Origin: Spirochaetia bacterium
GTDB lineage: Bacteria; Spirochaetota; Spirochaetia; SZUA-6; Bin103
Assembly: GCA_965203905.1 (NCBI GenBank)
Contig: CBDBDQ010000005.1
Location: 3,552,001-3,616,000, forward strand
Reading direction: 5' to 3'
DNA: 64,000 bases
Position 1 is the stretch's first letter. Each line of letters opens with the position of its first letter. Below, piece after piece: positions 4,713 through 6,041 of the stretch. The notes beneath the pieces were generated by a model that saw nothing but the letters and a program-made list of their open reading frames with translations, did not search any database and was not told the DNA's origin. The position numbers and the translations under genes were made by a program.

Positions 4713-5090
4713 ATGGTACGTATTGGTGCAAGAGTGTGTAGCGGAGATAGCATTAACATAATCGGTAACGGTGATTACCTATTCAAATTCGAGCTTTCGC
4801 TGTCAGGACGAACAACGGAGTGGATTTACAGCAAACCCGAAGAAAACGGAGTGTTGTGTGTCTGCGAGTTGACTGAGGACGACATTCCAGTGGTATTGAA
4901 AGAGTCTGACTATCGGTTTAGAACGGAACCGACTCAGATTCACCTGGACAAATGGGTGTTGTTGAGAAATGTGGCCGGGCACATAGCCGCAATTAGATTG
5001 ACTGCGATTAACGGGAATCGCGACCACACCCATGCGGAGGTCAGGTTTGTTTATGCCATCTTCGAATTGCTTACAAGGGTTGACCGCTAG
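4713..5090 (+). CDS. Hypothetical beta-rich protein, 125 aa (low-GC cassette cargo)
   Basis: RBS GAGGTAAGG; upstream promoter; convergent 4-bp overlap with ORF 5087-5542. Confidence 0.65.
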   Translation: MVRIGARVCSGDSINIIGNGDYLFKFELSLSGRTTEWIYSKPEENGVLCVCELTEDDIPVVLKESDYRFRTEPTQIHLDKWVLLRNVAGHIAAIRLTAINGNRDHTHAEVRFVYAIFELLTRVDR

Positions 5091-5542
5091 GAAGCCCATT
5101 TCGGAATGGGAATTCCGTGCAATCGACATAGTCTGTACTTTCCACGGTCCACAGTCTCGAATTCATTTGTTCGAGAAAAGTATGCGAATATGGCCCCTTC
5201 GGTTCCTAACTGAGCACAGTCGGAGATCATCTTTTTTGCGTATTGTGCGGTAATAGTTCCGTCCGGAGATAGGTTCGCTAGGAAGACTGCTGCTTCACCG
5301 ATGTTCGCCAGCTTCTTCAGAGACTCAATTAGCTCGTTTTCTTTGGCTTCAGCAGTATCGATGGACAGTTGAAGTTGGGCTTGGAACTCCTCTAGACGGC
5401 GTAGGCTATCCGCTAGTTTGTTTCGTTCGGCGTCAAGCGTTTGAAGGGCACTCTTTGTAGCGTGGATATGGGAGATGAAAACTCGGAGCGCGATGCGTTG
5501 CTCCTCAAGACTGACGGATGTGTTTACCAGTGGTGTCACCAT
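5087..5542 (-). CDS. Hypothetical protein, 151 aa, N-terminal coiled coil and probable C-terminal winged helix
   Basis: Heptad-like segment LQTLDAERNKLADSLRRLEEFQAQLQLSI; wing-like FETVDRGKYRL; RBS AAAGGT; downstream of and co-oriented with the tRNA pair. Confidence 0.7.
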   Translation of the reverse strand: MVTPLVNTSVSLEEQRIALRVFISHIHATKSALQTLDAERNKLADSLRRLEEFQAQLQLSIDTAEAKENELIESLKKLANIGEAAVFLANLSPDGTITAQYAKKMISDCAQLGTEGAIFAYFSRTNEFETVDRGKYRLCRLHGIPIPKWAS

Positions 5543-5623
5543 ACTTGACCTTTTCGCTCAAACGTGTTACATTTGTCAGGCAGCGGGAACGTAGCTGATC
5601 GATATCGTTCGTACTCCAAAGGT

Positions 5624-5707
5624 TGCCGGCGGTGGGAGTTGAACCCACATGCCCCTACAGGCGACCGCTCCCAAAGCGGTTGTGTCTACCAATTCCACCA
5701 CACCGGC
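5624..5707 (-). tRNA. tRNA with tRNA-Leu body and UGG (Pro) anticodon; CCA not encoded
   Basis: GCCGGTG TG GTG-GAATTGGTAGA-CAC A ACCGC-TTTGGGA-GCGGT CGCCTGTAGGGGCAT GTGGG-TTCAACT-CCCAC CGCCGGC A. All stems pair; long variable arm; A73. Confidence 0.92.
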
Positions 5708-5713
5708 AGAGAA

Positions 5714-5784
5714 TGGAGAAGACCGGAATCGAACCGGCATCGCAAGATTCGGAGTCAGGCGTGGTACCATTACACTACTTCCCC
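5714..5784 (-). tRNA. tRNA with Ala-type acceptor stem (G3:U70, A73) and CCG (Arg) anticodon; two anticodon-stem mismatches; CCA not encoded
   Basis: GGGGAAG TA GTG-TAATGGTAC-CAC G CCTGA-CTCCGAA-TCTTG CGAT GCCGG-TTCGATT-CCGGT CTTCTCC A. Confidence 0.82.
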
Positions 5785-5794
5785 GCTGTGTTCT

Positions 5795-5838
5795 AGAAAG
5801 GGAGCCTGTGACGTTGCAGCGTTGCGGTGCTCCCTTCT
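5795..5838. promoter_or_regulatory. Hairpin in the leader between the promoter and the first tRNA
   Basis: AGAAAGGGAGC...GCTCCCTTCT outer stem; the inner segment extends the pairing only on the plus strand, through G-U pairs. Confidence 0.55.
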
Positions 5839-5849
5839 TCATGCCCCAA

Positions 5850-5878
5850 AGCGTAATATCAATCCTCACAGTAGGCAA
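5850..5878 (-). promoter_or_regulatory. Putative sigma70 promoter driving the tRNA pair
   Basis: Minus strand TTGCCT (5878-5873) - 17 bp - TACGCT (5855-5850), about 65 nt upstream of the first tRNA. Confidence 0.6.
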
Positions 5879-5967
5879 GGGCCGTAGAGAAAAATCTGTG
5901 ATGATGAGCTTACAGGAATCCGAGTGTAGGTGTTAGGTGTTACCTGTCGCAAGGTGGAGCATGACGT

Positions 5968-5989
5968 AAAGAACCCCGCTGTAGGGGTT
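5968..5989 (-). terminator. Terminator-like hairpin upstream of the tRNA promoter
   Basis: Minus strand AACCCC-TACAGC-GGGGTT followed by CTTT. Confidence 0.4.
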
Positions 5990-6017
5990 TACGGCGGCTG
6001 ATACAGCACCGATACGG

Positions 6018-6041
6018 TGGTTAGACAAGTGTGTTGCTGCG
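6018..6041 (-). mobile_element. Orphan cassette terminus homologous to the left end of the 18342-20438 cassette
   Basis: Minus strand CGCAGCAACACACTTGTCTAACCA vs GGCGAAAACATACTTGTCTAACCA (18342-18365), sharing an exact 13-bp run; coincides with the low-to-high GC transition. Confidence 0.7.

Follow-up and report, generated by a model that had tools for sequence, protein, structure and literature searches.

Leucine-type tRNAs with a proline anticodon are carried by IS1595-family elements and occur in a foreign island of a spirochaete genome

Introduction

What does a bacterium gain from a transfer RNA (tRNA) whose body belongs to one amino acid and whose anticodon belongs to another? The question is raised by a 64,000-nucleotide (nt) stretch of DNA from a Spirochaetia bacterium (GenBank assembly GCA_965203905.1, contig CBDBDQ010000005.1, positions 3,552,001 to 3,616,000), referred to here as the window, in which two tRNA genes precede a small open reading frame (ORF) and the second tRNA joins a leucine-type body to the proline anticodon UGG. 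Few natural tRNAs show such a conflict between identity and anticodon, and little of their biology is understood. An earlier interpretation of the window from its letters alone (the sequence-only reading) proposed the locus as a candidate mobile mistranslation unit with two identity-swapped tRNAs. We found that Leu-type UGG tRNAs form a real, widespread and structurally conserved family, that they are cargo of insertion sequences (ISs), and that they are coupled to transposase genes rich in CCA codons.

Results

A leucine-type tRNA with anticodon UGG in the window

The unit in question consists of the following features.

5784-5714, minus strand: tRNA1, 71 nt, type I, anticodon CCG (ARAGORN; Rfam RF00005, 56 bits)
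5713-5708, minus strand: 6-nt spacer between tRNA1 and tRNA2, from the sequence
5707-5624, minus strand: tRNA2, 84 nt, class II, Leu type, anticodon UGG (ARAGORN; Rfam RF00005, 55 bits)
5542-5087, minus strand: 151-amino-acid (aa) ORF, an open frame for a long helix and a C-terminal winged helix, ending in an RGKYRL motif

ARAGORN, Rfam and the ORF list agreed on two minus-strand tRNAs separated by 6 nt and followed by the ORF, as the sequence-only reading had described. Both tRNAs scored above the Rfam gathering score of 29 bits and aligned end to end with the 7/5 model.

The body of tRNA2 is that of a tRNA-Leu, with A73, A14, U8, a Leu-type D arm and a long variable arm of 15 nt, together with A15 and G1:C72. 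Positions 8 to 25 have the same letters as the host genes for tRNA-Leu(GAG) and tRNA-Leu(UAA), and the five best matches among all host tRNAs were the five tRNA-Leu genes of the host. The fold energy gave a z score of -2.4 against shuffles. The anticodon loop, UUUGGGA, contains G35, G36 and G37 and gives the anticodon UGG instead of one from the leucine families (NAG or YAA). Compared with a tRNA-Pro, tRNA2 shares G35, G36 and A73; in place of C1:G72, G15:C48 and a class I fold, it has G1:C72, A15 and the 15-nt variable arm. The three tRNA-Pro genes of the host are class I with C1:G72. The mismatch between body and anticodon held when the sequence was checked, since contigs from two samples gave zero letter differences over tRNA2. 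The host genome (8.0 Mb, 66% guanine plus cytosine, GC) has a full ordinary set of tRNAs elsewhere for Leu (five), Pro (three), Ala and Arg, and tRNA1 and tRNA2 are therefore supernumerary.

According to the sequence and the Rfam alignment, the acceptor stem of tRNA1, GGGGAAG/CUUCUCC, has G1-C72, G2-C71 and G3:U70 followed by A73; the alanine identity element G3:U70 with A73 is present. The same alignment placed two central mismatches, C28.U42 and U29.U41, in the 5-bp anticodon stem. The fold energy of tRNA1 was no better than that of shuffles (z +0.15), and comparison with the host tRNAs gave no clear isotype. Its CCG anticodon (5752-5750) was covered by contigs of one sample only (its two runs).

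Another odd tRNA is found elsewhere in the same genome, at G000:C5:4211301-4211376 (L203 3302-3377; here and below, G numbers are genomes, G000 being that of the window, and L numbers are loci). Rfam scored it at 43.6 bits, and its anticodon, UUA, would read the stop codon UAA. It is immediately preceded by a hairpin, and 2.8 kb off there is a fragment of an IS1595 transposase, with a gene for an HSDR_N-domain protein between.

Leu-type UGG tRNAs form a conserved family

The mismatched tRNA recurs beside a homologue of the 151-aa ORF, a recurrence that the sequence-only reading had named as a check. In G017, from another genus of the same family, a hairpin stands ahead of a Leu-type UGG tRNA and a remote ORF homologue (20% identity, BLASTP E value 5e-5) comes after it, with no second tRNA. 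A pattern consisting of a Leu-type D arm and then a UGG anticodon loop was searched for in one genome per species (185,579 species). The scan gave 89 stretches, from which 80 loci were fetched and analysed with a script that took a tRNA as intact when it had a 7-bp acceptor stem and a 5-bp T arm. An intact cloverleaf was found in 47 of the 80 loci, and Rfam recognised 43 of these 47. Judging from the record titles, the matches of the scan come from Planctomycetota, Acidobacteriota, several proteobacterial classes, Verrucomicrobiota, Gemmatimonadota, Chloroflexota and others. Viral contigs gave 12 pattern matches, 11 of them intact.

The anticodon stem was fully paired in 46 of 49 Leu-type copies, with 39 distinct stems; shuffled partners gave 3.5 on average and 11 at most. 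Because the stems covary in this way, we regard the copies as maintained RNAs. A73 was present in 47 of the 49 and G1:C72 in 39, while five had the proline-type C1:G72; position 37 was A in 38 copies and G in 11. All the tertiary and T-loop features of a tRNA were retained, as was the 7/5 acceptor/T arm. One member, L139, has C33 in place of U33.

Some pattern matches were set aside. A group I intron is known from tRNA-Leu(UAA), and inspection by eye suggested that some 17 of the 80 loci hold tRNA-Leu genes split directly behind U34, probably by such an intron. In these loci (L019, L020, L021, L036, L041, L042, L045, L046, L048-L051, L058, L069, L077, L078 and L086; the hosts are Eremiobacterota and several proteobacterial metagenome-assembled genomes), a structured insert follows U34, and the pattern was matched by chance letters at its start. 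L017 and L096 were chance matches in coding sequence, and the remaining non-intact loci were truncated or interrupted. The UGG pattern match in L054 is not an intact tRNA fold; a Leu-type tRNA with anticodon CCC (2697-2781) lies about 1.2 kb from it on the other strand. At L087, a T-box leader (723-941) lies 1.1 kb from the UGG tRNA.

The tRNAs are cargo of IS1595-family elements

In the ISfinder classification, the IS1595 family is marked by a transposase with a zinc ribbon and a DDE_Tnp_IS1595 domain, terminal inverted repeats and 8-bp target duplications. Of the 47 genome loci, 24 encode a transposase with this domain (6e-42 in L052) and zinc ribbon within 3 kb of the tRNA; among the viral loci, 6 of 12 do so. 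In most linked loci the transposase gene lies just past the 3' end of the tRNA on the opposite strand, and in many the tRNA sits 7 to 130 nt from the transposase stop. Inverted repeats and perfect 8-bp duplications bound a segment with the winged-helix ORF, the tRNA or tRNAs and the transposase gene in L052, L065, L047 and L031; L033 has a fifth inverted-repeat pair with no clear target duplication. The element in L052, 2.3 kb long, is inserted in a WG-repeat gene, has inverted repeats and a perfect 8-bp duplication, TTAATTAT, and contains a coiled-coil/winged-helix ORF, a hairpin, an irregular GGU tRNA, the class II UGG tRNA and the transposase gene. The smallest elements (2.1-2.3 kb, that of L065 measuring 2.1 kb) leave no room for further cargo. 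The mobile unit proposed for the window is thus of a kind that elsewhere is part of IS1595-family elements bounded by inverted repeats and by target duplications. These tRNA-carrying elements have the same transposase domains, terminal repeats and 8-bp duplications as IS1595 elements with passenger genes; in the literature on IS1595 passengers and on ISs, we came across no description of passenger tRNA genes. Inspection by eye also showed a short and highly basic ORF, some 45 codons long, immediately within the left end of the L052 element (4600-4760, minus strand). Near the IS1595 transposase gene of L081, a DUF3800-IX RNA (38 bits) was found at 4152-4217.

A sample unbiased with regard to the anticodon was made of 80 metagenome loci picked by transposase similarity alone, which were screened for class II tRNAs with ARAGORN and with the D-arm pattern freed of its anticodon constraint; Rfam was run on 7 of the 80. 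Class II tRNAs were present in seven loci, and all seven had UGG. In one locus, L193, the tRNA just upstream of the IS1595 transposase gene is of the serine type (2593-2706, minus strand; 114 nt, class II, G73) and has the anticodon UGG and a companion tRNA. A tRNA-Ser(UGG) is the standard laboratory mistranslator of Pro codons. The same anticodon is therefore found on two scaffolds whose synthetases are blind to it: according to excerpts of PMC11028032 (the papers cited here by PMC number are all drawn on in excerpts), the synthetases for Ala, Leu, Ser and Pyl take no account of the anticodon.

These results support the view that the combination of Leu body and UGG is selected and not decayed. 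That the window merely holds two decaying pseudogenes with anticodons that drifted by chance would fit the broken anticodon stem and unclear isotype of tRNA1 and the patchwork of gene fragments around the unit. For tRNA2, this idea is already contradicted, because dozens of genomes share its body and anticodon, the stems covary and the genes lie in intact mobile elements; we consider it extremely improbable.

The companion tRNAs are not conserved

Second tRNAs beside the UGG tRNA were found in the window and in L025, L052, L053, L061, L079, L139, L192 and L193. The type-I companions have weak stems and the anticodons CCG, GGU (L052), GCU (L079), GCA, UGC, GGC and CGU. By Rfam coordinates, the tandem spacer in L052 is 9 nt long (5698-5706). 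Among the seven type-I companions read, G3:U70 occurs in that of the window only, the other six being without it. Since the companions vary in anticodon and only the class II UGG tRNA recurs, two matched swaps are not a property of the family. The claim of the sequence-only reading that both swaps were selected thus stands for the Leu body with UGG, which recurs with covarying stems, UGG being the anticodon of all seven class II tRNAs in the unbiased sample, and is not supported for CCG, which is not conserved and in the window sits on a damaged anticodon stem. The CCG companion may be a degenerating or non-decoding partner. In L061, a second Leu-type class II tRNA, with anticodon UGA (1965-2048), lies beside the UGG tRNA.

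The closest prior report is that of Mukai et al. (2017, Nucleic Acids Research, PMC5389517), excerpts of which describe polycistrons of irregular tRNAs (tRNA0/tRNA1/tRNA2) in acidobacterial soil metatranscriptomes, together with allo-tRNAs, near toxin-antitoxin and transposon genes. Tandem odd tRNAs, a misfit of anticodon and identity, soil bacteria and mobile genes alongside are common to both, and the tRNA1 species with GGU or GCU have the anticodons of the L052 and L079 companions. Some of the irregular tRNAs were charged but unused in E. coli, and the authors likewise conclude that some may not serve translation. The allo-tRNAs differ in having a 12-bp acceptor branch (8/4 or 9/3) and serine identity, whereas tRNA2 is a 7/5, Leu-type class II tRNA with A73. 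The excerpted text names no IS1595 link, invariant UGG, winged-helix partner or codon coupling; UGG species may be shown in the supplementary figures.

The partner protein is a putative winged-helix regulator

The 151-aa ORF and its family gave no Pfam family above threshold. An AlphaFold2 model based on 56 sequences (pLDDT 93.3) shows one long helix spanning residues 12-76 and, at residues 81-138, a winged helix (helix 81-91, strand 96-98, helices 99-109 and 115-124, strands 128-132 and 135-138). The model thus predicts a helix-turn-helix followed by a beta-hairpin wing. Foldseek matched winged-helix DNA-binding domains only, and weakly (E value 0.012 or worse), with the Rok domain best and then forkhead and RpoE, the delta subunits of which were also among the matches. 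An N-terminal helix that could oligomerise and a C-terminal winged helix are shared with Rok-type nucleoid-associated proteins and HARE-HTH proteins; the differences are the weakness of the matches and the absence of any Pfam assignment for the 151-aa protein. Its relative in L065 scored 22 bits with HARE-HTH, below the cut-off of 25.9. The winged-helix protein may be a DNA-binding regulator of the unit.

The family of the 151-aa protein is small: a search of 1.84 billion representatives gave 61 matches, including a few long coiled-coil proteins. Within the order, it was found only in G000 and G017 of 92 genomes, and a phylum sample of 401 genomes gave G000 and two weak matches that were confined to the coiled-coil portion (E values 2-3e-4). 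No relatives were found in the one-genome-per-species scan. In 18 or more of the 47 loci, an ORF of similar build, with a similar wing motif at its C-terminal end as judged by eye, lies upstream of the UGG tRNA and on its strand, and a profile of these IS-borne ORFs matched the winged helix of the 151-aa family (probability 72%, E value 3.4e-5). A coiled-coil/winged-helix gene beside the tRNA is thus a recurrent feature, in line with the sequence-only reading.

That reading had further suggested an inducible proteome-poisoning defence or a toxin-antitoxin-like system, with the tRNA as the toxin and the adjacent protein as its controller, or else decoy tRNAs. It could draw on the IetS-like, GajB-like, HicB-like and RlaP neighbours, on the toxin-antitoxin genes near the irregular tRNAs of Mukai et al. 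(PMC5389517), and on the fact that the module is the sole cargo of the 2.1-2.3 kb elements. However, PADLOC gave no significant full-length match for the 151-aa ORF, only short coiled-coil matches to long models (E values 4e-4 to 0.02), the best being to the 610-position LmuB model over 81 residues (4e-4). We take these as coiled-coil noise, and none of the findings hints at abortive infection, at a toxin or at decoy tRNAs. The recurrent neighbour of the tRNA is a transposase gene and not a defence gene, and a transcriptional repressor would have no antitoxin-like means of neutralising a stable tRNA. A role in defence or as a toxin is thus very unlikely.

Linked transposase genes are rich in CCA codons

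The cognate codon of UGG, CCA, made up 29% of the Pro codons in 26 linked transposase genes and 12% in 57 unlinked relatives, an enrichment of about 2.5-fold (p 7e-7 on residuals adjusted for GC at third codon positions, GC3, which is higher in the linked genes). The unlinked group includes the tRNA-bearing L193, which makes the codon contrasts slightly conservative. In a paired comparison with flanking host ORFs, CCA was at 28% in the linked transposases and 9% in the flanks (n 20, p 3e-4). At 39-50% protein identity, synonymous sites would be expected to be saturated. Within the linked transposases, CCA accounted for 5 of 76 codons at the four conserved Pro columns and 88 of 240 at variable Pro columns. 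Recoding of the transposase by its own tRNA was rejected as an explanation: none of 11 Leu-conserved columns had Pro codons, and CCA sites align with Leu in other sequences in only 4% of cases.

The enrichment in CCA argues for decoding, but correct reading fits it at least as well as misreading. If the tRNA were charged by prolyl-tRNA synthetase (ProRS), alone or together with leucyl-tRNA synthetase (LeuRS), the element would bring its own supply of tRNA-Pro(UGG) for the rare CCA codon, boosting or gating its own genes and leaving the proteome unchanged. The CCA enrichment of the linked transposases would fit such a supply, and at the sites of CCA codons Pro is much more frequent in other sequences (26%) than Leu (4%). 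G35, G36 and A73 are present, G37 is present in the window, and 5 of the 49 members have the proline-type C1:G72. Nevertheless, an ordinary copy of tRNA-Pro would suffice for this purpose, and the scaffold is always class II, of the Leu type and once of the Ser type with G73. Set against the proline determinants given in the excerpts of PMC9976931, 39 of the 49 copies have G1:C72, position 15 is A, and 38 have A37. The scarcity of CCA at conserved Pro columns also fits a risky codon better, although only four columns are concerned. We consider ProRS supply a rather improbable explanation.

A second alternative is that the tRNA-shaped RNA decodes nothing and serves the IS as a cofactor, regulator or processing signal. 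It could be a cleavage handle for RNase P/Z or an antisense start against the convergent transposase gene, or the UGG of its loop could pair with CCA ends or be bound by the winged-helix protein or the zinc ribbon of the transposase. The 7-130 nt between tRNA and transposase stop on opposite strands in many loci would suit such a role, as would C33 in L139, the weak stems of the companions, and the irregular polycistron tRNAs that were charged but unused in translation in E. coli (Mukai et al., PMC5389517). On the other side, the tertiary and T-loop features and the 7/5 arm are kept, A73 is present in 47 of 49 copies, and CCA enrichment in linked genes is not predicted. A role apart from decoding therefore seems rather improbable to us.

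The unit lies in foreign DNA with one IS-end-like motif

The following features surround the unit in the window.

4400-5950: low-GC island holding the module, 45-54% GC against 62-70% around it
5836-5798, minus strand: leader hairpin directly 5' of tRNA1, from the sequence
5878-5873 and 5855-5850, minus strand: candidate promoter TTGCCT-17-TACGCT, proposed from the sequence
5911-5923, minus strand: IS-end-like motif TCGGATTCCTGTA, resembling the left inverted repeat of tRNA-carrying IS1595 elements
6047-6124: RlaP-like gene fragment, 84% identical to window 2090-2167, at the right edge of the inserted DNA

The module is foreign in its host genome, because it lies in a low-GC island and is absent from all 10 genus relatives: window 4610-6040 had no match in 10 of 10 same-genus genomes, except a 28-nt match to the tRNA D arm. 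The flanking aldolase, HicB-like and RlaP genes are common to these genomes and the window. A cassette-like terminus had been proposed near 6041, and it is real as an edge, where the RlaP-like fragment ends. On its left side, the island runs into transposase remnants (3319-4360), which we take from our reading of the ORFs to be of the IS256 type.

The signals proposed upstream of tRNA1 fared less evenly. A hairpin right before the first tRNA is also found in L002, L052 and L203, so that its position recurs, but the hairpin in the window folds no better than shuffles (z -0.9). The letters of the candidate promoter are present, but a scan for consensus promoters gave no minus-strand site, and its single plus-strand site was no more than in shuffles. 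The motif TCGGATTCCTGTA was likened to the left inverted repeats TCGGAATGTTGTA in L031, CGGAATTATATA in L052 and CGGAAGTGTGTA in L047; it is a weak signal, with no inverted partner nearby and 0.67 chance matches expected in the window. Apart from this unpaired motif, no convincing inverted repeats were found around the module. None of the three ORFs beside or within the module (4713-5090, 4803-5129 and 5087-5542) matched a transposase family in Pfam, and the five IS1595-type matches of the host genome all lie away from it. With a single end-like motif, no partner and no transposase, the module is best read as a transposase-less derivative.

Discussion

How is a tRNA such as tRNA2 charged, and what would it do? 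In the excerpts of PMC9976931, Leu identity is essentially A73 and A14, the anticodon arm being dispensable for leucylation, and bacterial Pro identity consists of G35, G36 and A73 plus C1-G72, G15:C48 and methylated G37. tRNA2 has all the Leu features and only part of the Pro set, which suggests charging mainly with leucine, possibly mixed with proline. Charged in this way, it would read CCA (perhaps CCN) codons and give Pro-to-Leu missense. The proposed module would comprise the class II tRNA, always with UGG, the small coiled-coil/winged-helix protein and sometimes a second, irregular type-I tRNA. For the window, we see an about even chance that it holds a transposase-less copy of an IS1595 passenger module and that its tRNA probably puts Leu at Pro codons. 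Our broader proposal is tentative: an IS1595 lineage may carry its own missense UGG tRNA, of the Leu type and once of the Ser type, under a winged-helix regulator, so that the transposon changes how its host reads Pro codons (to Leu or Ser), while its transposase gene would have adapted to that reading by favouring CCA among Pro codons where the site is tolerant and avoiding it where the site is critical; a derivative lacking the transposase would then be what the window holds.

Several observations weigh against missense decoding by an IS-borne tRNA. tRNA2 keeps the ProRS determinants G35, G36, A73 and G37, so that proline or mixed charging is possible, and the A37 of 38 of the 49 copies is unlike both tRNA-Pro and the tRNA-Leu for CUN codons. 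The genome-scale scan required UGG and thus cannot show that other anticodons are rare; in the unbiased sample, 73 of the 80 loci gave no class II tRNA by two screens, which leaves a sample of seven tRNAs. The codon tests treat related sequences as independent, and their p values therefore overstate the case. That an element should enrich CCA in its own transposase gene is easier to understand if the codon is read correctly as Pro than if it is misread. CCA sites align with Pro in 26% of cases and with Leu in 4%, and the 11 Leu-conserved columns have no Pro codons. In the window and G017, the tRNA comes first and the ORF follows, a different order from that in the IS1595 elements, and there is no adjacent IS1595 transposase gene. 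The runs found to contain the stretch are all DNA runs, and none is an RNA run.

Other natural tRNAs with a deliberate mismatch between identity and anticodon are known from bacteria. tRNAProX and ProRSx of Streptomyces and other bacteria have been proposed to bring about regulated mistranslation with proline (excerpts of PMC10404621, PMC10365949 and PMC11415595). tRNAProX has proline identity, a non-proline anticodon and a dedicated synthetase, and tRNA2 is the reverse, a non-proline body with a proline anticodon, carried by an IS. Among the scanned neighbours of the window module, no synthetase families were found by Pfam. The nev-tRNAs of nematodes (PMC3333845) are class II bodies with anticodons of other amino acids and come from eukaryotic chromosomal genes. 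Engineered or human anticodon variants of the tRNAs for Ser, Leu and Ala (PMC11028032, PMC6827378) show a similar mismatch, but they are eukaryotic genes or laboratory constructs and not bacterial transposon cargo. A 2024 review of mistranslating tRNAs (PMC11415595) lists no such bacterial family in the excerpted text, and our search of the literature on IS tRNA genes as missense suppressors and on tRNALeuUGG gave no paper. Anticodon-mismatched natural tRNAs are thus a known kind; what is new is the IS vehicle, the fixed UGG on scaffolds whose synthetases are blind to the anticodon, the protein partner and the signature in codon usage.

A class II body with a proline anticodon recurs over many phyla and viral contigs in defined mobile elements, and mobile DNA may thus carry its own way of misreading the genetic code. 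If the tRNA decodes, this would be a horizontally spreading ambiguity of the code on one of the simplest kinds of mobile DNA, and its three genes, about 2.2 kb in all, would make a system that is easy to test. If it decodes nothing, it would be a new tRNA-derived cofactor of a DDE transposon. Either outcome bears on the purpose of the irregular tRNA polycistrons in soil metatranscriptomes. It also matters for annotation, as standard tools label Leu-type UGG genes "tRNA-Pro".

Neighbouring genes in the window

The DNA around the module is a patchwork of gene fragments. Two adjacent genes for RlaP, the RNA repair pathway nucleotidyltransferase, lie at 722-2259, followed by a HicB-like gene at 2337-2870. 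Beside the IS256-type remnants, a fragment at 3153-3494 duplicates the C-terminal part of the UvrD/GajB-like helicase encoded at 7399-9480, several partial copies of which are found in the genus relative G005. The PADLOC scan also gave IetS-like and GajB-like genes among the neighbours. Within the low-GC island, a 125-aa ORF (4713-5090, plus strand), for which neither Pfam nor PADLOC gave a match, runs convergently towards the 151-aa ORF.

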